Assembly (NCBI GenBank): GCA_001784585.1
Contig: MFRN01000035.1
Location: 42,925-106,924, forward strand
DNA from: Candidatus Melainabacteria bacterium RIFCSPLOWO2_02_FULL_35_15
Lineage (GTDB): Bacteria; Cyanobacteriota; Vampirovibrionia; 2-02-FULL-35-15
Reading direction: 5' to 3'
DNA length: 64,000 nt
The notes beneath the pieces were generated by a model. It was not told the DNA's origin. It worked only from the letters and a program-made list of their open reading frames with translations, and ran no database searches. The position numbers and the translations under genes are program-made. Of the stretch, positions 1,129 to 21,085 are shown piece by piece; positions within the stretch are counted from its first letter, which is position 1, and every line of letters begins with the position of its first letter.

Positions 1129-4100
1129 CTAAGGGCAGGGGCTTCCAGTGGGTTTACAAGTATTACTTGCACTGCAGAAGAAACTCCCTGCCGGACAATT
1201 TTGTCCGCCGCCTGAAGAAGGGCATGTAATTTGACATGTGCCATCTGGGCATTTAGTTTGCCCGGCTGGACACGGACAAGCAGCTAGTGTTGTCTGACAT
1301 GAGTTATCGGGACATCTTATCGGAGTAGCTTGTGGGCAAGGGCATGTAATCTGACATGTACCATCTGAGCATTTAGTTTGCCCGGCTGGACACGGACAAG
1401 CAGCCAGTGTTGTCTGACATGAGTTATCGGGACATCTTATCGGAGTAGCTTGTGGGCATGTATCTCCGCCACCGCCACTACTGCTTGTACTAGTGCATGT
1501 AATTTGACATGTGCCATCTGAGCATTTAGTTTGCCCGGCCGGACACGGACAAGCAGCCAGTGTTACCTGACATGAGTTATCAGGACACATGATTGGAGTA
1601 GCTTGTGGGCATGTACCGCCACTGCTTGTACTGGTGCACTCAAGCTGTGTCACTTTGCAGCTTCCATCAGGACATCTTATTGGAGTAGCTTGCGGGCATG
1701 TGCCGCCACTGCTTGTGCTTGCACACTCAAGCTGTGTTACTCTGCAGCTTCCATCAGGACATCTTATTGGAGTAGTTTGTGGACATGTACCGCCACTGCT
1801 TGTACTGGTGCACTCAAGCTGTGTCACTTTGCAGCTTCCATCAGGACATCTTATTGGAGTAGTTTGCGGGCATGTGCCGCCACTGCTTGTGCTTGCACAC
1901 TCAAGCTGTGTTACTCTGCAGCTTCCATCTGGACACTTGATTGGTTTGTCTTGTGGACATGTAGTTGATCCACATTCAGTTTGATTAAATACACACTTGC
2001 CATCAGGACACTTAAATTGTCCTAGTGGACATGCGCCACCACTGCTTGTGCTGGTGCACTCAAGCTGTGTTACTCTGCAGCTTCCATCTGGACACTTGAT
2101 TGGTTTGTCCGGTGGACAAGGACCACCGCCGATGCATTTTTGAGTAACAGGATCAAATTTCTGATCAGGTGGACATTCTCCTTTGCCACATTCTGCCTGA
2201 GAAGGTTTACATAAACCATCCGGACACTTTACAGGTTTATCTGGTGGGCATTGTCCACCGCCAAAGCCACCGCCAAAACATGGTTTACACTCTGGAGGAA
2301 TATCTCCAGTTGATCCGCCGAAACCAGAAGGTTGCGTACCGCCTGGCGTTTGTTCAAGAAGTTTTCTTACATATTGGCTGCATGAGGCAGGGCAATTGTC
2401 CTGGCCGCCTTTTCCTTTTTTACAACCTCCGCCTTCATCTCTGACAAGTCCTTGTCCAAATTTTTCACAAATTGGTAAACAAGCTTCTTGTCCATTTGAA
2501 AGTTTTCCTGGTTCATACTTATCAGGATCAGGGCATGATTTCTTACAACTTTCTACTGCAACATCAGTAGCAACCTTGTCAGAACCAAAATTAGCTGTTA
2601 AATCTTTACAAAGACAACTACGTAAGTCACCTCCAAGTGGAATTGGTCCAGGGCCACCAAATCCTCCCATACCACTACCAAAGCCGCCAAATTGTTGTGC
2701 AGCAAATGTTGTGCTTGTACAGCAACCTTTAGTAACTATGCCAGAACCAAAATCACAAACAGGCCTGCCACTTTTAGCGTCACATGTTTGATGGCACTTA
2801 CATACTTTACAATCCTGAGGAAATCCAAAACCGCCACCAGGGGCACCAGGACCACTGGGACCACCAGGGGTACCAGGACCGCCAGGGCCACCAGCAGTTG
2901 ATCCGCCAAATGTTTGTTCTAAGCCTGTAAATGAAGGTTTTCCAAACTGACTTTCACAATCTTTATGACAACGGGTTAGTACACAGAGTTGTCTGGCTAT
3001 GTCGTTTGGAGTAGTTGGCGCACTTTCACCAGGAGGAAAAAATCCACCCTGTAGTTTAGAAGGAACACAGAATTTTTTACCATTACCTGCATCACCAATA
3101 GCCCAGTCAGGACCAGGGTTTGTCGGGTCAGGAATACATTCAGAAGCTGGTACTCCGTCTTTTGCATCTATTTCAAAGCAGAATAAATCTCTTGGCGGTT
3201 TTTTTACAAAACATTGACCAGGGCCGCCCGGAGTGCTACCTGGTGACGGGCCAGATACTTGTGCTAATCGAGTTATTGGTCCTGGGCCAGCGGGGCCTCC
3301 TTGTGGGCCGCCACAAACACCAAATGGCTGAACACAATTTTTTAGAATGCTTGCAAACTTAGTACATTCTGGCGGAGGACAAACTGGTTTAGGACCTTTA
3401 GCATTTGGCAGTACAAACTTTTCATATACATCACAGGGACTGCCTTTTTCTTCTCCTTTGGTAGCATGCTTACAATAAACTTCTGCTATTTTTTCCAGAG
3501 GCAGTTTCTCAATGAATTCCTTTCCTTCAAAGTTACAAACACTAAAATATGTAGACTTAACATCATTTCCTAGTGCTGCATCAGGTTTATCACAACGATT
3601 TGCAAGCAATTTAACATCCGGACATGCAGCAGAAGGTGTAGGTAAACCACCACTGCTTGAAGTTGATGTGCCACCTGTAATATCATCTAATTTTTGTTTT
3701 ACTGCCTGATCGGCAATTTCGTTAAGTGCTTCTTCATCTCCTTCTGCTGCTGCTTTTAAATAATCGAGCTCTTGAGTCGTCTCTTCTGTTACTTCAATAG
3801 CTTCATTTTCTGAGATTGCTTCATTTGCGTCCGGGTCAGTGCTAAGAGGGACCAGTGCTTCTAGTTCTGCATCTTTATCCTCATCAATGTTTACAGCAAC
3901 AACTCCCGGTTCTGTATCATCTTCGAGTAAAGTATTACTTTCATCTTCAGTTTGTGCTGACAGTTTTCTATTCTTAGTAGTAGTAGTGTTTGAAGGAAGA
4001 TTTTTTGCCCTTACTTCTGTAAAGAATGCACCGTTATTACTTGTGATAACTGACTTATCTGAAATCATATCTCCTTCAAGATCTTCTACTGTTACTACAC

Positions 4101-4647
4101 CTGTTGATTTTGTCTTAGCAGTACCAACAACAAGTGCAGGCGGTTCATATGTAAATGAACTGGTAGTAATATTTATATCTTTTCCATCGGAAATTGTTAG
4201 TTTATATTGATCACCGGGAAGTGAACTGGGTGAAACAGTAATTCCTGACTGGTTAGTAATAGAAAATAAATTTACGACCAGGAACTTACCGGATTTTTTC
4301 TTTAGTTTTCTGTTCTGTACTGTAACTGACTCTGTAGGTACTGTATAAGTTTTTGTGGAGTCTAATGCTGAAGTTAAAGTAACAGTAAGTTTACTTACAC
4401 CAGATTTTCTGACTTTTGCCAACTGATTCGGTGGAAGAGCTACGTTAGCATCATCAGCTGTAGGTATTAAAATACTTCCATATATGGTTTGCTCACCATC
4501 GTTACTAAATACCTGAATGCTAGCTGATGTTTTACCTTTCTTCCCTTTTGCACTTGTTTCATTTGTCGTACAAAATTCAAAAGAAATAAAAGCAAGTGCC
4601 ACAACAAAAAATATCAAAATAAATTTTTTCACAGTTTTTCCTCCCAT
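1129..4647 (-). CDS. Large secreted cysteine-rich tandem-repeat protein (1172 aa). It has a signal peptide, two predicted beta-sandwich N-terminal modules, an acidic linker, a Gly/Pro low-complexity Cys-rich region, and C-terminal 29-aa and 40-aa Cys repeats.
   Basis: ORF track gives 1172 aa. The N-terminus MGGKTVKKFILIFFVVALAFISF is hydrophobic. The C-terminal half contains the unit CPDGSCRVTQLECTSTSSGGTCPQTTPIR repeated about 8 times, then CPCPAGQTKCSDGTCQIT-type units. An upstream RBS GGAGG is present at 4649-4660 (complement). Confidence 0.85.
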   Translation of the reverse strand: MGGKTVKKFILIFFVVALAFISFEFCTTNETSAKGKKGKTSASIQVFSNDGEQTIYGSILIPTADDANVALPPNQLAKVRKSGVSKLTVTLTSALDSTKTYTVPTESVTVQNRKLKKKSGKFLVVNLFSITNQSGITVSPSSLPGDQYKLTISDGKDINITTSSFTYEPPALVVGTAKTKSTGVVTVEDLEGDMISDKSVITSNNGAFFTEVRAKNLPSNTTTTKNRKLSAQTEDESNTLLEDDTEPGVVAVNIDEDKDAELEALVPLSTDPDANEAISENEAIEVTEETTQELDYLKAAAEGDEEALNEIADQAVKQKLDDITGGTSTSSSGGLPTPSAACPDVKLLANRCDKPDAALGNDVKSTYFSVCNFEGKEFIEKLPLEKIAEVYCKHATKGEEKGSPCDVYEKFVLPNAKGPKPVCPPPECTKFASILKNCVQPFGVCGGPQGGPAGPGPITRLAQVSGPSPGSTPGGPGQCFVKKPPRDLFCFEIDAKDGVPASECIPDPTNPGPDWAIGDAGNGKKFCVPSKLQGGFFPPGESAPTTPNDIARQLCVLTRCHKDCESQFGKPSFTGLEQTFGGSTAGGPGGPGTPGGPSGPGAPGGGFGFPQDCKVCKCHQTCDAKSGRPVCDFGSGIVTKGCCTSTTFAAQQFGGFGSGMGGFGGPGPIPLGGDLRSCLCKDLTANFGSDKVATDVAVESCKKSCPDPDKYEPGKLSNGQEACLPICEKFGQGLVRDEGGGCKKGKGGQDNCPASCSQYVRKLLEQTPGGTQPSGFGGSTGDIPPECKPCFGGGFGGGQCPPDKPVKCPDGLCKPSQAECGKGECPPDQKFDPVTQKCIGGGPCPPDKPIKCPDGSCRVTQLECTSTSSGGACPLGQFKCPDGKCVFNQTECGSTTCPQDKPIKCPDGSCRVTQLECASTSSGGTCPQTTPIRCPDGSCKVTQLECTSTSSGGTCPQTTPIRCPDGSCRVTQLECASTSSGGTCPQATPIRCPDGSCKVTQLECTSTSSGGTCPQATPIMCPDNSCQVTLAACPCPAGQTKCSDGTCQITCTSTSSSGGGGDTCPQATPIRCPDNSCQTTLAACPCPAGQTKCSDGTCQITCPCPQATPIRCPDNSCQTTLAACPCPAGQTKCPDGTCQITCPSSGGGQNCPAGSFFCSASNTCKPTGSPCP
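1200..2110. repeat. Coding tandem DNA repeats inside the 1129..4647 gene: about 3 units of 120 bp (roughly 1226-1585) followed by about 6 units of 87 bp (roughly 1594-2110).
   Basis: The 87-bp units alternate between two variants (gtaccgccactgcttgtactggtgcactcaagctgtgtcactttgcag versus gtgccgccactgcttgtgcttgcacactcaagctgtgttactctgcag), giving a 174-bp higher-order repeat. Units differ by only a few substitutions. Confidence 0.85.
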
Positions 4648-4934
4648 AAAGAAAATATCTTTTATAATGCTAACCTCTTAACTGCTAATAAGTGAAATAA
4701 ATGTCACACAAGATACATACTATATAACGCGACATAAATGCTAACGCATATTATGTCGCTATTTTATGGCGGATCTTCATTGGCGTTCGGGTTGTCGAAG
4801 GACAACCCTCACTTGTAACATTACTTAGGTCGCTGCGTATATATAAAGATTTTCATTATGAGGGATACAGATAATTACTAAAAAGTATTAATTTTTTTGT
4901 CAATTTTAGAAATAAAAGGAACAAAAGCTTACGC

Positions 4935-8248: not shown

Positions 8249-8268
8249 AGAAAAGGAGAAGTAAAGAC

Positions 8269-9303
8269 ATGCCATGGCATGTCTCAACAAATATGGGAGT
8301 AACTAAAGATATGCCATGGCATGTCTCAAATATGGGAGCAACTGTGACAGAAAAAAAAGAATCAATTGCAACAAGAGTTGCCTATGGAAAAGCACTCCTT
8401 GAGCTTGGGAAAGAAAATCCAAACATTGTAGTACTTGATGCAGATCTTTCCGGTTCTACGCAAACCAAATTCTTTGCGAAGGAATTTCCGGAAAGATTTT
8501 TTAATATGGGAATTGCAGAGCAAAACATGATAGGTGTTGCAGCCGGGTTATCAAGTACTGGCAAGATTCCTTTTGCAAGCAGCTTTGCAATGTTTGCATG
8601 TGGTCGTGCCTGGGAGTTTGTCAGAAACTCTGTTTGTCACAATATGTTTAATGTAAAAATTTGTGCAACACATGCAGGATTAACTGTAGGTGAAGATGGC
8701 GGCTCTCATCAGATTATTGAAGATCTGGCTATTATGAGGGCAATACCGCACATGACAGTTATTGTTCCTGCTGACGCTACTGAAGCAAAACTTGCTACAA
8801 GAGCTATTGCCAGCTTTTTTGGTCCTGTTTATATGAGACTTGGAAGATCAAATGTGCCGGTTTTATTTGATGAAAAAAAATTTGAGTTTAAAATCGGAAA
8901 AGCACAAATTATAAAAAGCGGGATTGATGTTTCTGTTTTTGCCTGCGGAGTAATGGTGAGCAGAGCTCTCTGGGCAGCTGAAATTTTGCAAAATGAAGGA
9001 ATAAGTACAGAGATTATAAATGTTTCTACTATTAAACCTCTTGATAAAGAAACTATTTTAGCCAGTGTACAAAAAACAGGTTGTGCAGTTACATGCGAAG
9101 AACATAATATCCATGGGGGACTTGGTGATGCTATTGCCTCTGTACTTACTGAAAATCATCCTATACCTATGAAAAAAACTGGTGTTATGGATCAATTCGG
9201 GCAAAGCGGAAAAAGTGATGAACTTCTTGTTCATTATGGATTAACTAAAGAAAAAATTGCTGAGGCTGCCAGAGAAGTTATTAAAAGGAAGTTAATAAAT
9301 TAG
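8269..9303 (+). CDS. Transketolase, C-terminal subunit (split transketolase). The start is ambiguous because of a 42-bp tandem duplication at the 5' end.
   Basis: Conserved motifs ATRVAYGKALLELG...VVLDADLSGST and the pyrimidine-binding/C-terminal domains are present. An RBS AAGGAGA lies upstream of ATG 8269. Alternative starts occur at 8311 and 8332. Confidence 0.85.
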   Translation: MPWHVSTNMGVTKDMPWHVSNMGATVTEKKESIATRVAYGKALLELGKENPNIVVLDADLSGSTQTKFFAKEFPERFFNMGIAEQNMIGVAAGLSSTGKIPFASSFAMFACGRAWEFVRNSVCHNMFNVKICATHAGLTVGEDGGSHQIIEDLAIMRAIPHMTVIVPADATEAKLATRAIASFFGPVYMRLGRSNVPVLFDEKKFEFKIGKAQIIKSGIDVSVFACGVMVSRALWAAEILQNEGISTEIINVSTIKPLDKETILASVQKTGCAVTCEEHNIHGGLGDAIASVLTENHPIPMKKTGVMDQFGQSGKSDELLVHYGLTKEKIAEAAREVIKRKLIN

Positions 9304-9362
9304 CCCTATTAATAAGTCATTAACCGTACGGTTTAACCGCATGGTATAATACTTATAAAATC

Positions 9363-9623
9363 ATGAATAAACGGATCGGAAAACAAAAAGCAAAAGAAAC
9401 ACTCCCGAAGCTCCTTGATATGGTTAATAAAGGGCTTGGACCAATTGAAATCATTGATCAAAAAAAAGATGAAGCAGTTGCATATCTGATTTCACCGGAA
9501 GATTATAAAAAGAAATCCAGGAAAAAATCGTACGCTGGATTTTTAAAAGGAAAGCTTATAGTTTCTCCTGATTTTGATGAACCAGACTGGGAACTCATTA
9601 GATTAATTGAGAAATCAGAATGA
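9363..9623 (+). CDS. Phd/YefM-family type II antitoxin
   Basis: 86 aa. The pattern IGKQKAKETLPKLLDMVNKGLGPIEIIDQKKDEAVAYLISPEDY matches the Phd/YefM fold consensus. It overlaps the downstream PIN gene by 4 bp. Confidence 0.65.
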   Translation: MNKRIGKQKAKETLPKLLDMVNKGLGPIEIIDQKKDEAVAYLISPEDYKKKSRKKSYAGFLKGKLIVSPDFDEPDWELIRLIEKSE

Positions 9624-10039
9624 AGCTTTTTGTAATAGACACAAATATTTATATAGACTACATGCTGAAAGGAACAAATTGCTTTTCAAAATTAGTAAAC
9701 CATTTCTTTAAATTACTTGAGGTAAAAGAATGTATATTTTATGTGCCTGCAATATGCTTTTGGGAAATCAGCAGAAAAATTATTACCGGCAAATTAACCA
9801 TGCAAAAAAAATCTCCAGAGGAAGCATTATGGTTAATGCAAAAACCATTAGATAATGTGGAGGATTTTAGGGATTTACCGCTTACCCGGAAAGCAGCAGC
9901 TTTAGCATCTGGTTTTAGAGCTAAGCTGCCAGATCCATTTGATCAATTAATAGTTGCTTCGGCACTGGATGCAAATTTGCCTTTAATTACAAAAGATCAA
10001 AACATGCAAAAATCAGGATTAATACAAACTGTTTGGTAG
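9620..10039 (+). CDS. vapC: PIN-domain ribonuclease toxin (VapC-like)
   Basis: 139 aa. The N-terminus FVIDTNIYIDY carries the first acidic residue. Further acidic residues occur in FWEIS, DPFDQLIVASA and ITKDQ at typical PIN spacing. It is translationally coupled to the antitoxin. Confidence 0.75.
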   Translation: MKLFVIDTNIYIDYMLKGTNCFSKLVNHFFKLLEVKECIFYVPAICFWEISRKIITGKLTMQKKSPEEALWLMQKPLDNVEDFRDLPLTRKAAALASGFRAKLPDPFDQLIVASALDANLPLITKDQNMQKSGLIQTVW

Positions 10040-10040
10040 T

Positions 10041-10108
10041 ATGGAAAAAGTAAAGAAAAAATTGCTGAGGCTGCAAAAGAAATGATTAGAAGAAAACTTA
10101 AAGATTAA
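10041..10108 (+). pseudogene. Displaced, diverged duplicate of the transketolase C-subunit 3' end (gene remnant)
   Basis: Sequence atggaaaaagtaaagaaaaaattgctgaggctgcaaaagaaatgattagaagaaaacttaaagattaa resembles 9237-9303 (ggattaactaaagaaaaaattgctgaggctgccagagaagttattaaaaggaagttaataaattag). A 23-nt exact core aaagaaaaaattgctgaggctgc is shared. It ends with an in-frame stop at 10106-10108. Confidence 0.7.
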
Positions 10109-10252
10109 ATTTCTTTTCAGGGAAAACTCTAAATATTCTCCTCCTTTTAAATGAATTCTTGAGGCTTTTTGATATCTCTGTATTTATACGGGTAAAAAAG
10201 AATTGATATAAGAAATAAAAAAAGAGGGGGTTGGCTAAATATTTAAAATCTT

Positions 10253-11533
10253 TTGCCAATAAAAAATAATATGCCAGAAGGAATAAGTCCATTAAGTGGA
10301 AGAGTCGAAGCAAGATTTGACAGAGTTTTAGAAAACAGAGCAAGAGACATAAGTTCTGGACGTAGATTTACACCCCTTGGAGGAAATTATTATCAGACAT
10401 ATGAATATGATCCGGATGTTAATGGACAATATTTAAGAAGAGAAAATGGACCGTATATTTACAACACAGGTACAGGTAGAGGAAATAGATATATTCCCGG
10501 ACATGACATAAATTCTGACGGTACATTTACAAGAACATATTTATTACCCAGATCGCAGGCACCTGCTATCTCATACTTAAGCAGGCAGGATGCAATCAGG
10601 CATTTAAGTTTGCTTGAAAATCCAGATGGTACTTTTCGCAGACATGGATTTGTAGGAACTTATACAACAAGAAATGACGGAACAGTTTTCTATGGAGGTG
10701 GTTACCATCCAAATAATGGCAGACGGGTAGATCTTCCTCCACAAACTTATATTAATGGCAGATGGTATGAAGGTGATATAAGACCAGGTTCTATTCCGCA
10801 GCCTGGAGTTGGAGAAGTACAACCACGACCTGGAGCCGGAGGAGTACAACCGCAGCCTGGAGTCGGCGGAGTACAGCCACGACCTGGAGCCGGAGGAGTA
10901 CAACCGCAGCCTGGAGTTGGAAGAATACAACCGCAGCTGCCAAGAATAGAAGTACCACCAATAACAGCAGGTACAAACGGAAGGATAGCTTTACCTCCTG
11001 GAGTACGACTAACAAGAATAACAGCACCTGGAGCAACAGCATGGACAGAACCAGGTTCATATGAATATCAAGGTGGATTTAAAATGAATAAAAATGGCAG
11101 CTATACATTTGCTCCTGGAGCAGATCCATATCGGGCAAGCGGAACATATACATTGAGAACAAATGATGGAAGAGAGTTTCAATTACAGGTAAACTCACCA
11201 CCGCCAATTTCACAACCGCTACCGGTGGCTTCACCATCACGGTTTGACATTCATCAGGATCTTCGTGCATATCTGAGAGCTCTTGCAGGGGATTTTGGAG
11301 AAGAGCAGGGAGAAATAGAATTTATTCTTTCACAACTGGAGCAGGCAGCTACTCCGGGAGATAATGATCTTACAGAATTAATTCGTAGAAGAGATCCTTC
11401 ATTAAGTCAGGTAGTTTTGAATTTAGAACAGCTTGCAGGAATTCATACCAGACGCGGAGAAGCAGATCTGGCAGATCGAGCTAAGCAGCTTGCACAGTTG
11501 ATCCGGCCTTATGTACCAATACTGCCAGCATGA
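10253..11533 (+). CDS. Hypothetical protein with Gly/Pro-rich 26-aa tandem repeats (GVQPQPGVGGVQPRPGAG) and a GC-richer Ala/Leu/Arg-rich C-terminal region
   Basis: ORF of 426 aa with a 78-bp DNA repeat at about 10801-10940. No signal peptide. No recognisable catalytic motif. Confidence 0.55.
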   Translation: MPIKNNMPEGISPLSGRVEARFDRVLENRARDISSGRRFTPLGGNYYQTYEYDPDVNGQYLRRENGPYIYNTGTGRGNRYIPGHDINSDGTFTRTYLLPRSQAPAISYLSRQDAIRHLSLLENPDGTFRRHGFVGTYTTRNDGTVFYGGGYHPNNGRRVDLPPQTYINGRWYEGDIRPGSIPQPGVGEVQPRPGAGGVQPQPGVGGVQPRPGAGGVQPQPGVGRIQPQLPRIEVPPITAGTNGRIALPPGVRLTRITAPGATAWTEPGSYEYQGGFKMNKNGSYTFAPGADPYRASGTYTLRTNDGREFQLQVNSPPPISQPLPVASPSRFDIHQDLRAYLRALAGDFGEEQGEIEFILSQLEQAATPGDNDLTELIRRRDPSLSQVVLNLEQLAGIHTRRGEADLADRAKQLAQLIRPYVPILPA

Positions 11534-11540
11534 CCAAATA

Positions 11541-12074
11541 CTAATCAAATTTTATGCTCACCTTATGTTTTTCAGCCCAGGCTTTAAAATTGTCTAGGTT
11601 ATCATTAAATTGACCATCAAAAATTCCCCTGTTTATATCTTCTATTAATTTCTGTGCCTCTTGTTTATTTCGTGGTGTGTCAAGATTAAGCAGTGCAAGC
11701 AGTTCTTTATAAACATTCACTAATTTTTTTGCAGCAGTAGCAGGATCAGAAAAAGCATCTGTTGGGAGTTGCAAATGAAATTGCTTTGTTTGAAGTTCTG
11801 AAAAAAATCGTACATAATCTTTTACTAAGTTTTTGAACGGAGCAAAAGTCCTTTTTAATTCTGCTATTTCTCTTTTACTCGCAAGTTGTGCCAAAACCGG
11901 TCCTGTAACTTCTCTATTATCCAGAAATAACAAAAATCGTTCTTTAGCAGGCTCTCCGTCCTCTATCAAAGCTTGTTGAGCAAAATGATTGGCAAGAGTC
12001 CGTCTGTCTTCTACTCTTACAGCGTTATTGTTTGTAATTCTTTTGATTGCTGATAGTAATATAGGGGAAATCAT
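11541..12074 (-). CDS. Hypothetical protein
   Basis: 177-aa ORF, convergent with the 10253 gene. No recognisable motif. Confidence 0.5.
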   Translation of the reverse strand: MISPILLSAIKRITNNNAVRVEDRRTLANHFAQQALIEDGEPAKERFLLFLDNREVTGPVLAQLASKREIAELKRTFAPFKNLVKDYVRFFSELQTKQFHLQLPTDAFSDPATAAKKLVNVYKELLALLNLDTPRNKQEAQKLIEDINRGIFDGQFNDNLDNFKAWAEKHKVSIKFD

Positions 12075-12146: not shown

Positions 12147-13340
12147 ATGAACAATTTCTTAATAAACCAAACACAAACTTTTAGATTTACGGAAGAACAG
12201 GAATTATTAAGAAAAACAATTCGTGAAGTAGCAGAAGAAAACTTTAAGGAAAAAGCCAGAGAAACAGATAAAACTCATAAATTTCCAAGAGAAAATTTTA
12301 ACTTGCTTGCAAAACTTGGAATTACAGGACTTATAATTCCTGAGAAATACGGCGGGAGCGAACTGGATTATATTTCATATGTAATAGCTATTAAAGAAAT
12401 TGCCAGAGTATGTGCTGTAACCAGTGTTATTCTGGGTGTGCATTCATCACTTTGTTCAATGCCGATTGTTAAATTTGGTTCGGAATGTTTAAAAGAAAAA
12501 TATCTTAGAAAACTTGCCTGCGGAGAACTGCTTGGGGCGTATTGTTTATCTGAACCGGGAAGCGGATCTGATGCAGCAGCAATGCAGACAAAAGCAGAAG
12601 ATAAAGGAAGTTATTTTATATTAAATGGGACAAAAGCATGGATTACAAATGGTTCTGAAGCAGATGTTTATATTGTTTTTGCTCAAACAAATCCTGATTT
12701 GAAGCATAAAGGAATCACTGCTTTTATTTTAGAAAAAAATATACAGGGTGTGTCTTTTGGAAAGCTGGAAGATAAGTTAGGCATAAGAGCAAGTGCGACA
12801 TGTCAGATGCACCTGGATAATGTAAAAGTGCCAGAAGAAAATTTGCTTGGCAATATCGGTGACGGTTTTAAAATTGCAATGTCGACACTGGACAGAGGAA
12901 GGATTGGAATTGCTGCGCAGGCATTAGGCATTGCACAGGCCAGTTATGACCTCGCCAGCTCATATGCAAAAGCCAGAGAAGCGTTTGGGCAAAAAATAAT
13001 TAACTTCCAGGCTATACAGTTTATGCTTGTTGAAATCGCTACTGAAATTGAAGCAGGTCAGCTTCTTACCTGTCAGGCAGCAAACATGTATGATCTGGGT
13101 TTGAAATTTACACGTCAGGCGGCAGAAGCAAAACTATTTTGTAGTGAGCTTGCGTCAAAGGCTGCAAATAAAGCAGTGCAGATTTTAGGCGGTTATGGTT
13201 ATACGACAGAATATGATGCCCAGCGTTACTTAAGAGATGCAAAAATTACTGAGATTTATGAAGGAACTTCTGAGATTCAGAGAATAGTTATTGCAGAGAA
13301 TATAATTAAAACGGGACTTACGCATATGTCATCTAACTAA
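12147..13340 (+). CDS. Acyl-CoA dehydrogenase (short-chain/butyryl-CoA dehydrogenase-like)
   Basis: 397 aa. Motifs YCLSEPGSGSDAAAM and the C-terminal TEIYEGTSEIQR are typical of the ACAD family. Confidence 0.85.
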   Translation: MNNFLINQTQTFRFTEEQELLRKTIREVAEENFKEKARETDKTHKFPRENFNLLAKLGITGLIIPEKYGGSELDYISYVIAIKEIARVCAVTSVILGVHSSLCSMPIVKFGSECLKEKYLRKLACGELLGAYCLSEPGSGSDAAAMQTKAEDKGSYFILNGTKAWITNGSEADVYIVFAQTNPDLKHKGITAFILEKNIQGVSFGKLEDKLGIRASATCQMHLDNVKVPEENLLGNIGDGFKIAMSTLDRGRIGIAAQALGIAQASYDLASSYAKAREAFGQKIINFQAIQFMLVEIATEIEAGQLLTCQAANMYDLGLKFTRQAAEAKLFCSELASKAANKAVQILGGYGYTTEYDAQRYLRDAKITEIYEGTSEIQRIVIAENIIKTGLTHMSSN

Positions 13341-13465: not shown

Positions 13466-14281
13466 CTAGGATGAAAATTTAGAAGACAGAAATAGTTCTC
13501 TTAAGGTGTCATAGTATTCATCTGTGAAATATTGTGTAAGACTGTTATGTCCTGCACCATTGAGTATAATTAACTTTTTAGGTTCATTTGCAGCATCATA
13601 TAATTCATATGCCCATTTTACAGGCGCCATTCTGTCAGCACTTCCATGGCTTATTAATACAGGCACATTAATTTTTTTAATTAGATCCTTTAAATTAAAC
13701 AAATCATTTTTAACGACAAAATTTGGAATTAACGGGAAATGATAATGTGCCAGCTCTGTAAATGTTGTGAAAGAACTTTGAATTACTACAGGACCTGTTT
13801 TAACCTTTCTGGCAAGTTCAAGAGCAGGAGCACCTCCCATAGAGCGTCCGTACAATGAGATATCTTCTGGTTTGTAACCTCTATTTTTGATGAGATAGTC
13901 ATACATTGCAAAAGCATCTAAAACAATTCCCTGAAAAGTCGGACTTCCTGTACTTTTTCCATAACCTCTATAATCTGCAATTAAAAAATTTATCGGAATC
14001 TTTTCCTGAATTCGAAGCGGTGCTGAATACCATTTACTTACATTAAAGTCATTACCGTGGAAAAAAATTGCTACTTTGTCTGAATGTTTATTTGCTATTA
14101 AAAGATATCCATGTAATGTTTCACCGTCAAAAGTTTTTATATAAACCTCTTCGTGATTAACACGGGAAAGTTGGTTCAGTGAATATAGTTTTTTACTTGG
14201 AGACAATAAAAGATAGTCTCGCAGGATATGCTGTAAATTCCAGAAGCTGGAGGGTGGTATTTTCCTTATTGTAAAGGTCAT
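13466..14281 (-). CDS. Alpha/beta-hydrolase fold protein
   Basis: 271 aa. A GxSxG nucleophile elbow (GRSMGG) is present, with downstream SHGSAD and GAGHN providing the acid and His residues. Confidence 0.7.
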   Translation of the reverse strand: MTFTIRKIPPSSFWNLQHILRDYLLLSPSKKLYSLNQLSRVNHEEVYIKTFDGETLHGYLLIANKHSDKVAIFFHGNDFNVSKWYSAPLRIQEKIPINFLIADYRGYGKSTGSPTFQGIVLDAFAMYDYLIKNRGYKPEDISLYGRSMGGAPALELARKVKTGPVVIQSSFTTFTELAHYHFPLIPNFVVKNDLFNLKDLIKKINVPVLISHGSADRMAPVKWAYELYDAANEPKKLIILNGAGHNSLTQYFTDEYYDTLRELFLSSKFSS

Positions 14282-14353
14282 AATCTGGCTGACTTGTTTT
14301 AATTACATGACATTTTACTATATACTTGTATGTTCAGAGAAAAATCAGTATAA

Positions 14354-15403
14354 ATGCAGTCAAACATTCAAAATTTTCAAACTACTACTGAAATGTCTTA
14401 TGTAAATAATGATCAGGTGAAAAATAAAGCTGAATTATTGTTTTCAAAGCTGAAAGAATATTTAAAATCAATTAAGCCGGATGAGTCTTTGTTTTTTAAC
14501 AAAGGTGAAACAGTGTATATTCCGGATATTCATGGAGATTTTGTACATTTAATAGTTACATTATATAAGCATGGTGTTTCAGACTCTGATTTAAGTTTAA
14601 AGAGAGATTTCAAATATATTTTCTTAGGTGATTTTTATGACAGGGCTCCGGATGCAGATGTAATTGATTTTTGGTTGAATCTCCAGATAAAAAATAGTCT
14701 TGAGATTTATAGATTAGCCGGAAATCATGAAATGGCTTTTCTGGAAAGAAATGAAAAAGGTTACCCTGTAATATTTCCTTCTCAGGATTCTATAATAGAT
14801 GCTTCCAGTAATTTTAGAATTACAGGAGATTTAATAAAGTCTGTTGCAGAAGGAAATATTCTGGCAGCATATTCTGATGAAAATATATTATATGTCCACA
14901 GCTACATAATTAACGATGACTACAAAGAATTAGGATTAGAAACCAATTCAAATGTTTTTGATTTTGCAACTGCTTTAAACCAGCGATTTAAACAACATGG
15001 ACAGAATGCATACAATCTTTTTTTAAATTGTAAAAAAGAAAAAAAATATAACTGGAAAGAAATAATCAAACCGTTTAAAGATGATCCTTTGTTTGATATT
15101 TACAAAGGGAAAAATGACATAAATACTTCTTTTGTCTGGCGAAGGACAGGCTTACCGGCTTTAAATATTTATCCGGCAGAGCTTGATGTGGAAATTCCTG
15201 ATGATGTTTATCAGATAGTCGGACATACACCTGTTTTTTTATTTAATATTCCACAGAATCAGCATTTTACATGTCCTTTTGTTTTATCATCAAAAACTGG
15301 TACAGGAAAAATTCAGTTTAGCGATGTAGGAATCGGATATTACTACAAGAAAGATGATTTTGAAAGACCGGAAGTTGTGATTAAGAGATTAATGGCTACC
15401 TAA
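14354..15403 (+). CDS. PPP-family metallophosphoesterase (Ser/Thr phosphatase/ApaH-like)
   Basis: 349 aa. Signature motifs PDIHGD, LGDFYDRAP (GDxxDRG) and AGNHE (GNHE) are present in canonical order. Confidence 0.75.
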   Translation: MQSNIQNFQTTTEMSYVNNDQVKNKAELLFSKLKEYLKSIKPDESLFFNKGETVYIPDIHGDFVHLIVTLYKHGVSDSDLSLKRDFKYIFLGDFYDRAPDADVIDFWLNLQIKNSLEIYRLAGNHEMAFLERNEKGYPVIFPSQDSIIDASSNFRITGDLIKSVAEGNILAAYSDENILYVHSYIINDDYKELGLETNSNVFDFATALNQRFKQHGQNAYNLFLNCKKEKKYNWKEIIKPFKDDPLFDIYKGKNDINTSFVWRRTGLPALNIYPAELDVEIPDDVYQIVGHTPVFLFNIPQNQHFTCPFVLSSKTGTGKIQFSDVGIGYYYKKDDFERPEVVIKRLMAT

Positions 15404-15762
15404 AAATAATTCCATTTTATCTGAAAACTAAGCAGCAAAGCCTTTTCAGCTTGTTTCATTTTTTCGTCTGATATCTTGCCTAATCTTTTAGCAAATCTGG
15501 CTATATCTGTTGTTTTGATTTGATTAAAAAGTGCCATTGATTTATTTCTCAAGCCACCTTCTCCTTTTTCTAATACAACTGCAAAAGGCCAGCTTTCTTT
15601 AATAGTACTTGTTACTGGTGCAATCATTGTAGTCTGTAGTGTTTCATTTATCAAATCACTTTGCATAACAAGGCATGGCCTGGTCTTTTTAATTTCTTTA
15701 CCAATTGCAGGATCTAAATTCACTATCCAGATCTCGCCACGTTTTGGTTTTATATCTGCCAC
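15400..15762 (-). CDS. mazF: MazF/PemK-family endoribonuclease toxin
   Basis: 120 aa. RGEIWIVNLDPAIGKEIKKTRPCLVMQSD...IAPVTS matches the MazF/PemK consensus. Confidence 0.8.
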   Translation of the reverse strand: MADIKPKRGEIWIVNLDPAIGKEIKKTRPCLVMQSDLINETLQTTMIAPVTSTIKESWPFAVVLEKGEGGLRNKSMALFNQIKTTDIARFAKRLGKISDEKMKQAEKALLLSFQIKWNYF

Positions 15763-15984
15763 CTATTCGTCTTCCAGTGTAATATCCCAGTCTTTCAGCT
15801 CGTCCCAAAGTTCTTTACATTCTTTCATGTCACAAACAGCCTTTTTAATTATCTTAGCTTCTTCTTCTTCTTTTGCTTTTCTAAGAGCTTCTGCTACAAA
15901 GGCTGCTTGATTTTCTTTGGATTGCAAATAAAGTACTAAGTCAACAGGTAAAGTAAAAGTTGCTTTTTTTGAATTTGAGTTCAT
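15763..15984 (-). CDS. Cognate antitoxin of the MazF-like toxin (small acidic C-terminus, RHH/MazE-like)
   Basis: 73 aa, immediately upstream and abutting the toxin gene. The C-terminus is acidic (ELWDELKDWDITLEDE). An upstream region at 16020-16060 carries the palindrome ACCATAT-taaag-ATATGGT and an ATATGGTTA direct repeat (putative operator). Confidence 0.6.
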   Translation of the reverse strand: MNSNSKKATFTLPVDLVLYLQSKENQAAFVAEALRKAKEEEEAKIIKKAVCDMKECKELWDELKDWDITLEDE

Positions 15985-16116
15985 ATTGATTCTGTCCTGG
16001 TTTTAAAACAATAATACTATACCATATTAAAGATATGGTTAAACTATATGGTTAATAATCTATTTAAAGGTATCCCTATAGTTTCTAACAATAAACCAGG
16101 TTGTGATTTTTTTAAT

Positions 16117-20286: not shown

Positions 20287-20317
20287 TGTTGCCAACATTA
20301 AAAAAAATTTATCTTTC
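20287..20317. repeat. 31-bp direct repeat, copy 1, flanking ORF6N cassette 1
   Basis: tgttgccaacattaaaaaaaatttatctttc is identical to 20926-20956. It contains the palindrome AATGTTG-c-CAACATT. Confidence 0.85.
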
Positions 20318-20324
20318 GATCAAT

Positions 20325-20831
20325 TTAAAAACCAATTCTTTTTCTTGATTTTACTTCAGGTTCTGTCAAACGTTTTATTGCCTCAAATACTATTTGAAAT
20401 TGGTTATCGTATTTTTTCTCTATCTCTTCAATCTTTTTTCTTAGGTCTTTATTACTTTCAATCATTTCCCGAAGCTTTGTGAAGGTTCTCATTATCTGAA
20501 TATTTACATTAATAGCCATTTCGCTGTTTAAAACAGTTGAGAGCATAGCAACACCCTGCTCGGTGAAAGCATATGGTAATGAAGTGGAATGTTTTAGTCT
20601 CTTGAACCGATCACAATTTGTGATCAGTTCATCCCTTTCATGTATAGTAAGCTGAAACATGAAATCTTCAGGGAAACGCTTAATATTTCTTTTAACTGAT
20701 TGATTTAAAGTTCTGGTTTCAACTTCATATAGGTTTGCCAGATCTACATCGATCATGACTTTTTTACCTCGTATTAAGAGAATCCTTTTTTCAATTTTTT
20801 CAACTGGTATTAAAGTTGTATTCATATTCAA
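20325..20831 (-). CDS. ORF6N-domain protein (phage/mobile-element-associated DNA-binding family)
   Basis: 168 aa. The VMIDVDLANLYEVETRTLNQSVKRNIKRFPEDFMFQLT and YAFTEQGVAMLS motifs are present. It is paralogous to 62474..63010. Confidence 0.7.
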   Translation of the reverse strand: MNMNTTLIPVEKIEKRILLIRGKKVMIDVDLANLYEVETRTLNQSVKRNIKRFPEDFMFQLTIHERDELITNCDRFKRLKHSTSLPYAFTEQGVAMLSTVLNSEMAINVNIQIMRTFTKLREMIESNKDLRKKIEEIEKKYDNQFQIVFEAIKRLTEPEVKSRKRIGF

Positions 20832-20908: not shown

Positions 20909-20923
20909 GTAACCCACGGTTAC
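20909..20923. promoter_or_regulatory. Palindromic putative operator GTAACC-CAC-GGTTAC upstream of the ORF6N gene. Imperfect copies lie at 20960-20974 and 20990-21004, and a half-site at 20865-20870.
   Basis: Perfect inverted hexamers GTAACC/GGTTAC separated by 3 nt. The same motif occurs upstream of the second ORF6N paralog at 63030-63044. Confidence 0.5.
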
Positions 20924-20925
20924 AT

Positions 20926-20956
20926 TGTTGCCAACATTAAAAAAAATTTATCTTTC
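20926..20956. repeat. 31-bp direct repeat, copy 2, flanking ORF6N cassette 1
   Basis: Identical to 20287-20317. Confidence 0.85.
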
Positions 20957-21085
20957 AATGTAACCTGCGGTATCAAAAGTATAACGAATGTAACTCTGGG
21001 TATCATATTACGAATTGCGAAAAGATCAAACATTCAGTAAATTATTTATTCACTTACGAGACAGTCCCCTGAAAGAAAAACCAAA

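Follow-up and report, generated by a model that had tools for sequence, protein, structure and literature searches.

A toxin-antitoxin operon between two diverged copies of the transketolase gene 3' end in a groundwater Melainabacteria genome

A stretch of 64,000 nucleotides (nt) from a groundwater Melainabacteria genome (Candidatus Melainabacteria bacterium RIFCSPLOWO2_02_FULL_35_15, contig MFRN01000035.1), analysed here as a whole and referred to as the window, carries a small toxin-antitoxin (TA) operon directly downstream of tktC, the gene for the C-terminal subunit of transketolase. The operon is followed by a second, diverged copy of the tktC 3' end. The tktC gene itself (positions 8269-9303, plus strand) is recognised by the Pfam families Transket_pyr (1.4e-46) and Transketolase_C (5.2e-33). 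Its likely true start is at 8332 (MGATV...), as in relatives and in the NCBI annotation; the open reading frame (ORF) seems 21 codons longer because of a 42-nt tandem duplication (93% identical) in the spacer between tktN and tktC (8259-8329). The first copy of this duplication contains a perfect 18-nt palindrome, GACATGCCATGGCATGTC (8266-8283), and the second copy an imperfect version of it.

The 736 bp between the two copies of the tktC end (9304-10039) are occupied by two overlapping genes only, exactly the antitoxin and toxin genes of the original prediction. The first (9363-9623, plus strand) encodes an antitoxin of 86 amino acids (aa) with a Phd/YefM-like N-terminus and a VapB-like C-terminus. 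Its family matches are weak, both of them falling below the respective cut-offs (Pfam PhdYeFM_antitox, E 3.2e-4, 20.9 bits, cut-off 29.8; NCBIfam TA_VapB, 26.7 bits, cut-off 60). It overlaps by 4 nt (ATGA) with vapC (9620-10039, plus strand), the gene for a PIN-domain toxin of 139 aa, which is matched by Pfam PIN at 34.2 bits, above the cut-off of 23.6, and in which the acidic residues D7, E49, D105, D108 and D126 are invariant among 10 homologues. The genes are preceded by a leader of 59 nt (9304-9362, plus strand), comprising the perfect palindrome AACCGTACGGTT (9322-9333), the sequence TTTAACCG after it, and also TGGTATAAT (9342-9350). In an alignment of six cassettes from four genomic contexts, AACCGTACGGTT precedes TATAAT in all six. 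Conservation within this family sets in near ATTAAT (9309), a few bases (about 5 nt) past the end of tktC, and extends to the vapC stop and no further.

Read from its sequence, the insert is a putative self-contained type II TA operon of the VapBC-like kind, extending from promoter to stop codon. The palindrome AACCGTACGGTT is a predicted operator, inferred from the autoregulation of type II TA systems. From what is known of these families, the antitoxin-toxin complex would repress its own promoter at the palindrome, and VapC, an RNase, would arrest growth once the labile antitoxin is lost, which would make the cassette hard to lose. The cassette may also have a role in phage defence. No recombinase family is present among the precomputed Pfam hits of all the genes within about 6 kb on either side, in agreement with the earlier description of a sub-kilobase cassette without an integrase.

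The proximal copy of the repeat (9235-9303, plus strand) runs from TAT GGA to TAG and comprises the final 22 codons and the stop of tktC, encoding the functional tail YGLTKEKIAEAAREVIKRKLIN. The distal copy (10040-10108, plus strand), a non-coding remnant that would read YGKSKEKIAEAAKEMIRRKLKD and is termed the relic, has its first base directly after the vapC stop TAG (10037-10039). The two are identical at 54/69 positions without gaps, and an open frame of 22 codons and a stop is retained in both. Their longest exact run is 24 nt (9246-9269, plus strand, equal to 10051-10074; TAAAGAAAAAATTGCTGAGGCTGC). The repetition of the tktC end after vapC had been recognised in the original prediction, with its borders one or two bases off, a core of 23 nt and an intervening segment of 737 bp. 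The edges of the repeat are sharp, with flanking identity of 28/90 upstream and 29/90 downstream, and directly 3' of the relic the window sequence begins ATTTCTTTTCAGGG.

Chance or low-complexity similarity, the coincidence that had been named as a possible refutation, is ruled out by 40 second-order Markov simulations of the window, in which the best match to the 69-mer never exceeded 40/69, and by the blastn-short self-comparison of the repeat (E = 2e-9). In the whole window, on both strands, the runner-up ungapped match to the tktC end is 37/69. The repeat is not an assembly artefact either, because the same arrangement of tktC, cassette and relic recurs, with at most one substitution across 9101-10400, in eight contigs (ENA, JGI, Logan) that come from seven independent samples. 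A functional role of the relic was rejected, since no terminator, promoter or stable RNA fold was found in it. The fold of the region 10020-10200 is no more stable than that of shuffled sequence (z = 0.95), and the region does not qualify as an integron attC site; inverted terminal repeats were not found, and vapC is directly followed by the tktC relic. The relic lies in frame with vapC, and read-through of the TAG would append 22 residues (10037-10108), which is probably a coincidence (1 in 3 chance).

In close relatives the site is empty. The locus of L173, L174 and L175 (P0153, which falls in the 90%-identity cluster of the window protein) has an acyl-CoA dehydrogenase gene 18 nt after the tktC stop, and in the P0156 contig the next gene, also for acyl-CoA dehydrogenase, follows after a gap of 21 nt. 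The same order of tktC and acyl-CoA dehydrogenase gene is found in L002, L003 and L093 (81-88% aa identity). Each of these empty-site relatives (L173/L174/L175, L093, L002, L003) has a single tktC end, so that the comparison with orthologous transketolase loci proposed along with the original prediction did find the state without the TA pair. In the window, the dehydrogenase gene starts only at 12147, leaving 2.84 kb between it and tktC, and between the relic and the dehydrogenase gene there are two hypothetical genes (10253-12074) specific to this lineage. Because tktC abuts the dehydrogenase gene in close relatives, the TA pair, the relic and the two hypothetical genes are lineage-specific.

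The origin of the two copies was examined by comparing them with the tktC tails of 72 relatives obtained in a search with full-length tktC; a query consisting of the C-terminal 150 aa alone returned mostly fragments and was uninformative. In the variable half of the tail (aa 13-22), the relic is identical to P0280 at 9/10 positions and to P0167 at 8/10, and to the 70 other relatives at no more than 6/10. Over the whole tail, 19/22 aa are identical to the functional tail of P0280. P0280 and P0167 are full-length tktC proteins from two independent metagenomic contigs and represent a sister lineage, designated 'B', whose tail consists of YGLT, the core and a relic-like right half. The relic shares with the B-type tails the rare residues M15 (2/73 tails) and R17 (7/73). 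Because the same residues occur in tktC of P0280 and P0167, the odd residues of the relic represent a real functional tail type, 'B'. The proximal copy belongs to the common 'A' type, and its closest match among the tails of the 72 relatives is P0155 (8/10 in aa 13-22). Only the relic changes L3K, T4S and N13K look like decay, the first of them placing K at a near-invariant Leu that is kept in 70/72 relatives. Thus the proposal that one end was supplied and the other is native is borne out in so far as the copies resemble the A-type and B-type tails of different relatives.

The exact core does not point to a crossover site. It was tried as the mark of a crossover or of gene conversion and is more simply the most conserved stretch of the gene: when 915 nt of tktC are compared between the window, L173, L176 and L093, the longest run without any change is formed by 23 nt of the core. 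A perfect core with diverged flanks is thus what would be expected of two functional alleles.

Upstream of the repeat, the tktC protein itself appears to be a mosaic. With residues counted from ATRVAYGK, the window and the B lineage differ at 1-2 of the 101 residues of core aa 113-213 and have in common S149, K171, S184 and A204, all of which are absent in the eight other close relatives compared. Over aa 214-289 they differ at 13-16/76 residues, which is as distant as any pair. Compared with P0167 and P0280, respectively, the window shows 7-8 differences in core aa 1-213 and 16 and 13 in aa 214-289 (Fisher p = 7e-6 and 4e-4). The part of tktC inferred to have been imported with the cassette corresponds to 9007-9303 (plus strand), the left breakpoint lying, by protein comparison, between about 8794 and 9007. 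About five protein characters would fit a Campbell-type single crossover with two reciprocally hybrid copies, in that the proximal copy has the B-like T4 followed by an A-type right half, and the relic has the A-like S4 followed by a B-type right half. The simplest account of this mosaic would be that a genome of the B type acquired the cassette along with a tktC 3' segment of the A type.

It is therefore suggested, at about an even level of confidence, that the cassette entered with a foreign tktC 3' end through host recombination anchored in tktC, and that the end originally present was pushed aside and is now in decay. The cassette would not have been integrated by a recombinase of its own. 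The incoming DNA would have come from a related Melainabacteria lineage in which the cassette already lay directly 3' of tktC, and the tktC 3' region of the donor would have paired with the resident gene through host homologous recombination. Two routes can be envisaged. A circle carrying the tktC end and the cassette could have been inserted by one crossover inside the conserved core (Campbell type), and the junction of such a circle would read from the vapC TAG through one copy of the tktC end into CCCTATTAAT. Alternatively, a linear fragment could have recombined by a homologous crossover further upstream in tktC (about 8794 to 9007), its far side being joined 69 nt ahead of the resident stop either illegitimately or via a relic already present in the donor. 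Homology-facilitated illegitimate recombination has reportedly been described by de Vries and Wackernagel and by Prudhomme et al., both in 2002. Both routes would leave the same scar, with tktC now ending in the A-type tail of the donor and the resident B-type tail pushed 3' of vapC, untranslated and decaying. This proposal is supported by the coincidence of the repeat edges with the cassette edges on both sides. Homologous rather than site-specific recombination is favoured because the imported part of tktC may extend beyond the repeat by about 300 nt on its upstream side.

Several observations weigh against entry with a donor tktC end. The donor state of the locus, an A-type tktC followed directly by this cassette, was not seen among the loci examined. 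At least one further event must have occurred at the junction, because the relic precedes the two hypothetical genes and not the dehydrogenase gene. The breakpoint is marginal in a triplet max-chi2 test (p 0.05-0.5), and in every pair the C-terminal region of tktC evolves at about double the rate of the remainder. The evidence for two alleles is protein-only and comes from two short metagenomic contigs (Logan) of 1770 nt for P0167 and 2283 nt for P0280. The codon polarity of the differences between the copies, set out below, is likewise compatible with a duplicate that arose in place and simply decayed. A sliding DNA comparison with relatives revealed no donor-like discontinuity, because neither the donor nor the B lineage is among the relatives available. 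In the P0155 contig (ENA ERZ27297570, 1303 nt), the next gene lies 58 nt after the tktC stop, compared with 59 nt to the phd-like gene in the window.

The alternative that survives best, although it is considered unlikely, is insertion in place with a 69-nt target duplication, after which the distal of the two initially identical copies decayed neutrally. The B tail would have arisen later as an excision hybrid, with the proximal copy on its left and the relic on its right, when recombination between the repeats removed the cassette from the B lineage. Plain in-place duplication and decay was initially favoured, and was demoted once the right half of the relic was found to match a functional tail of the sister lineage. 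Its precedent is the long target duplication around restriction-modification units, in which the repeats exceed 30 bp and are single at the empty site (Gene 259:99, 2000; Furuta, Abe & Kobayashi 2010, PMC2853133). As in those cases, a gene-sized selfish or defence unit without a mobility gene is inserted, the insert (736 bp here) is shorter than 20 kb, the repeat is longer than 30 bp, an empty site exists in relatives, and the repeat spans a stop codon and leaves the target gene intact, as published repeats often do at a stop or start codon. In the published cases, however, the repeats match one another and the empty site at 93-100%, whereas those at tktC are 78% identical, match different alleles and do not look like derivatives of one target sequence. 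Long target duplication has also been described for restriction-modification units and not for TA pairs, and DNA breakage by the cargo has been proposed as its cause, whereas VapC is an RNase.

The pattern of substitutions speaks partly for such an in-place duplication. When the 15 differences between the copies are polarised by L173, L176 and L093, the changes on the proximal copy are silent in 4/4 cases and those on the relic are replacements in 7/8. The differences are spread over the codon positions as 4/5/6, unlike those between orthologues, of which about 70% fall at position 3 (P = 0.005 and 0.015). The B tail is exactly the combination that an excision hybrid would produce (YGLT, core and relic-like right half), and by our own count the tail characters need 10 steps, the same number as under entry with a donor end. 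However, in-place duplication predicts that the B lineage should resemble the window up to the repeat, and the 13-16/76 residue differences lie just upstream of it. It also needs five replacements in the right ten codons of the relic and none in the eight core codons, a clean run as long as the core having P = 0.014 under uniform decay, and it requires that a tail already decayed became functional again in a housekeeping enzyme.

A distinctly improbable alternative is the mirror image of the proposed entry, in which the window is natively A-type and the cassette with the B-type relic, perhaps together with the two hypothetical genes, was imported from a B donor in which the repeats already existed, with an illegitimate left join at the stop codon of tktC. 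The absence of the entire 2.84 kb interval between tktC and the dehydrogenase gene from close relatives, the contiguity of the relic with the two hypothetical genes, and the ordinary distance of the window tktC 3' part from A-type relatives are all consistent with it. However, the central 100 aa of the window tktC are near-identical to the B lineage and unlike those of every A-type relative, so a second import from B would be needed, and the downstream flank of the relic has TTCTTTT in common with the native tktC-dehydrogenase spacer of L173.

Homologues of the cassette outside tktC bear on whether it has an attachment (att) site of its own. VapC homologues 61-80% identical to that of the window, each with a cognate antitoxin, occur in at least three other genomic contexts. 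The cassettes of L089 and L091 lie between gltX and hisI, with the same gltX side in L092; that of L177 lies between a methyltransferase gene and a GT4 gene, the latter being also the neighbour in L090; and P0023 provides a fourth context. The antitoxin-toxin pair is kept together in L089-L092 and L177, the leader is common to all five loci for which DNA is available, and in each related cassette the end of the next gene is only a few bases beyond vapC. At the five homologous loci with DNA, neither flanking repeats nor tktC-like sequence was found at either end. These comparisons indicate that the cassette family moves as a unit from promoter to stop codon and that it has no conserved element-borne att site, since the related cassettes lack tktC-like sequence and flanking repeats. 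The likeness to classic integrative elements claimed in the original prediction is therefore not upheld.

More distant homologues (29-36% identity, annotated VapC) are found on cyanobacterial and Burkholderiaceae plasmids. No VapC relatives were detected in phage records or viral contigs, and viral contigs contain no exact copy of the palindrome motif of the leader. The idea of a phage or plasmid as vector was rejected on these grounds, the distant plasmid homologues being the only matches. Flanking repeats as a general trait of these gene families were likewise rejected, as none were found at the five TA cassettes, at a MazEF-like pair of the window or at 26 ORF6N homologues in viral contigs.

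Integrative elements with an integrase are known that insert into gene 3' ends and reconstitute them (tRNA genes, fda, guaA and others), and the tktC locus resembles them in that integration is at a gene 3' end, a restoring copy is supplied and a displaced partial copy is left at the far end. It differs from them in having no integrase within about 6 kb, no att sequence common to the family and a size of 0.7 kb compared with tens of kb. Very little probability is accordingly given to the cassette being the remnant of a larger integrase-bearing prophage or integrative and conjugative element at the tktC 3' end, of which the repeats would be attL and attR and everything except the addictive TA pair would later have been deleted. 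An identity core with diverged arms is the structure that such a site would have, and end-rebuilding elements of this sort are well known. Against it, no integrase or recombinase family is found within about 6 kb, and the repeats fit the cassette more closely (0 nt on the right, about 5 nt from the family-conserved sequence on the left) than would be expected from random deletions. The family members elsewhere lack such an att sequence, no relative of VapC was found in phage records or viral contigs, and no exact match to the palindrome in viral contigs. A tandem duplication of the gene end, at whose junction the cassette later landed by chance, is the least credible alternative. The 42-nt duplication at the tktC 5' end (8259-8329) shows that such events occur here, but a base-exact landing would be needed on both sides, the copies match different alleles, and no tandem 69-nt duplication is present in the empty-site loci examined.

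Entry with a donor tktC end has counterparts in other systems. For Rhs, contact-dependent inhibition (CDI) and type VI secretion system (T6SS) loci, Kirchberger et al. (2017, PMC5361080) proposed a homology-anchored insertion by which the resident 3' end comes to lie further downstream. The tktC locus is similar in having a conserved upstream part of the gene as anchor, a new module and an orphaned resident 3' end. In Rhs, CDI and T6SS loci, the incoming end is a new toxin tip and the displaced piece keeps its immunity gene, whereas here the gene encodes a housekeeping enzyme, the new tail is functionally equivalent to the old one and the TA operon brought along is unrelated. In E. coli, circles that contained part of their target and were inserted by a single crossover have been shown to produce flanking duplications of 109-950 bp (Amarir-Bouhram et al. 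2011, PMC3240628). A direct duplication on both sides of an insert without a site-specific recombinase is likewise what is seen at tktC. That work concerned a laboratory plasmid with longer homology, whereas the segment shared here would amount to only 69 nt, of which a core of 24 nt is identical; a circle was not seen. Solitary type II TA islets are known from chromosomes, for example ccdO157 (Van Melderen & Saavedra De Bast 2009, PMC2654758), and the cassette resembles what is described there in being a lone TA pair between housekeeping genes that is variably present among relatives. The passages on TA islets in that review mention no flanking duplicate of a neighbouring gene end.

Two further repeat-flanked cassettes of about 0.6 kb, each with an ORF6N gene, are located in the window. 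The gene of the first (20325-20831, minus strand) lies in a divergent intergenic spacer between 34-nt repeats (20287-20320 and 20926-20959) identical at 33/34 positions, and its protein is assigned to the PADLOC candidate defence family PDC-S05 at 2.7e-62. The second cassette (62435-63102), with its gene at 62474-63010 (minus strand; PDC-S05 at 1.7e-59), is flanked by 34-nt repeats identical at 30/34 positions with a 23-nt exact core. Its proximal repeat is the 3' end of a DUF4127 gene (ending in WQRAFEVEINY), the distal relic reads WQRAFEVEIRVV, and the stop of this relic abuts that of the convergent gap gene. As judged from the sequence, the second ORF6N cassette has the architecture of the TA cassette. 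The parallel drawn in the original prediction thus applies to the flanking target repeats of both cassettes and to a gene 3' end in only one of them, the other being intergenic; a shared att logic can be discarded, as the repeats of the two are unrelated to each other.

Perfect palindromes, GTAACCcacGGTTAC (20909-20923) and GTAACCtagGGTTAC (63030-63044), are found upstream of the two ORF6N genes, and two degenerate palindrome copies lie just outside the right repeat of the first cassette (20960-21005), where they may reflect an older insertion or a target preference. A palindrome common to the TA and ORF6N cassettes was considered and rejected, as the two kinds of cassette differ in spacing and the counts do not exceed those expected by chance. 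Repeat pairs of this kind are rare, with about seven loci in 1.1 Mb of other loci, and were not found around the 26 ORF6N homologues in viral contigs.

The MazE/MazF-like pair of the window (15400-16060) is located directly after the pfk stop and is not flanked by repeats. Its leader sequence AACCATATAGTTTAACC (16037-16053) resembles the predicted operator AACCGTACGGTTTAACC of the Phd/VapC pair, although the antitoxins of the two pairs seem to differ in fold. Beside this insertion, a hydrolase gene and a gene for a protein of 349 aa (13466-15403) have, as a pair, the opposite orientation to that in L173, L093 and L003; no inverted repeats were found at the breakpoints. Another direct repeat in the window, of 714 nt and 83% identity (191-898 and 3949-4653), is no cassette; two paralogous genes for Cys-rich repeat proteins lie there in tandem, and the repeat corresponds to their N-terminal regions.

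The junction between tktC and the dehydrogenase gene is an insertion hotspot, with inserts also in L094, L001 and L176. The insert of L094 (4476-4771) is a small antitoxin-like ORF, AF2212/DUF104-like by eye, that of L001 (1205-1915) is a minus-strand gene unrelated to the genes of the window, and that of L176 (2249-2359) is a minus-strand gene fragment without similarity to them. The two hypothetical genes of the window (10253-12074) are unannotatable, and one of them contains 27-nt Pro/Gly-rich tandem repeats whose copy number varies among strain contigs. No flanking repeats were found around these two genes or the inserts of L094 and L001. In L093, a 34-nt repeat (1375-1408 and 3631-3664) flanks tktC and the dehydrogenase gene. 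It resembles a short palindromic intergenic repeat element (GTCATTGCGAGGAGCG...GCAATGAC) and encloses ordinary genes, and is not a cassette scar.

The structure at tktC represents known processes, namely long target duplication and homology-anchored displacement, in a new form, with a TA operon at the end of a housekeeping gene. A tentative and rather unlikely extension is that the Phd/VapC pair and the two ORF6N genes form a class of integrase-free cassettes that use a borrowed host gene or spacer end as their sole attachment site, with three cases in 64 kb. If this is true, such cassettes would loop out via their flanking repeats and re-enter related genomes at the same locus by host recombination, each time supplying a working gene end. 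A 'virus-like life cycle' of this kind has been proposed for restriction-modification units by Kobayashi's group and was never demonstrated. How solitary TA pairs and single-gene defence modules move without mobility genes is poorly understood, and the locus offers a testable route, in which a module beside a conserved housekeeping gene would use the gene end as its homology handle for entry into related genomes, leaving the gene intact and the old end as a datable scar. If general, this route would link the long target duplications of restriction-modification units, the orphan 3' ends of Rhs, CDI and T6SS loci and the TA islets. It would also provide a signature for the recent gain of defence genes in uncultured phyla, a short cassette between two allelic copies of a gene end.

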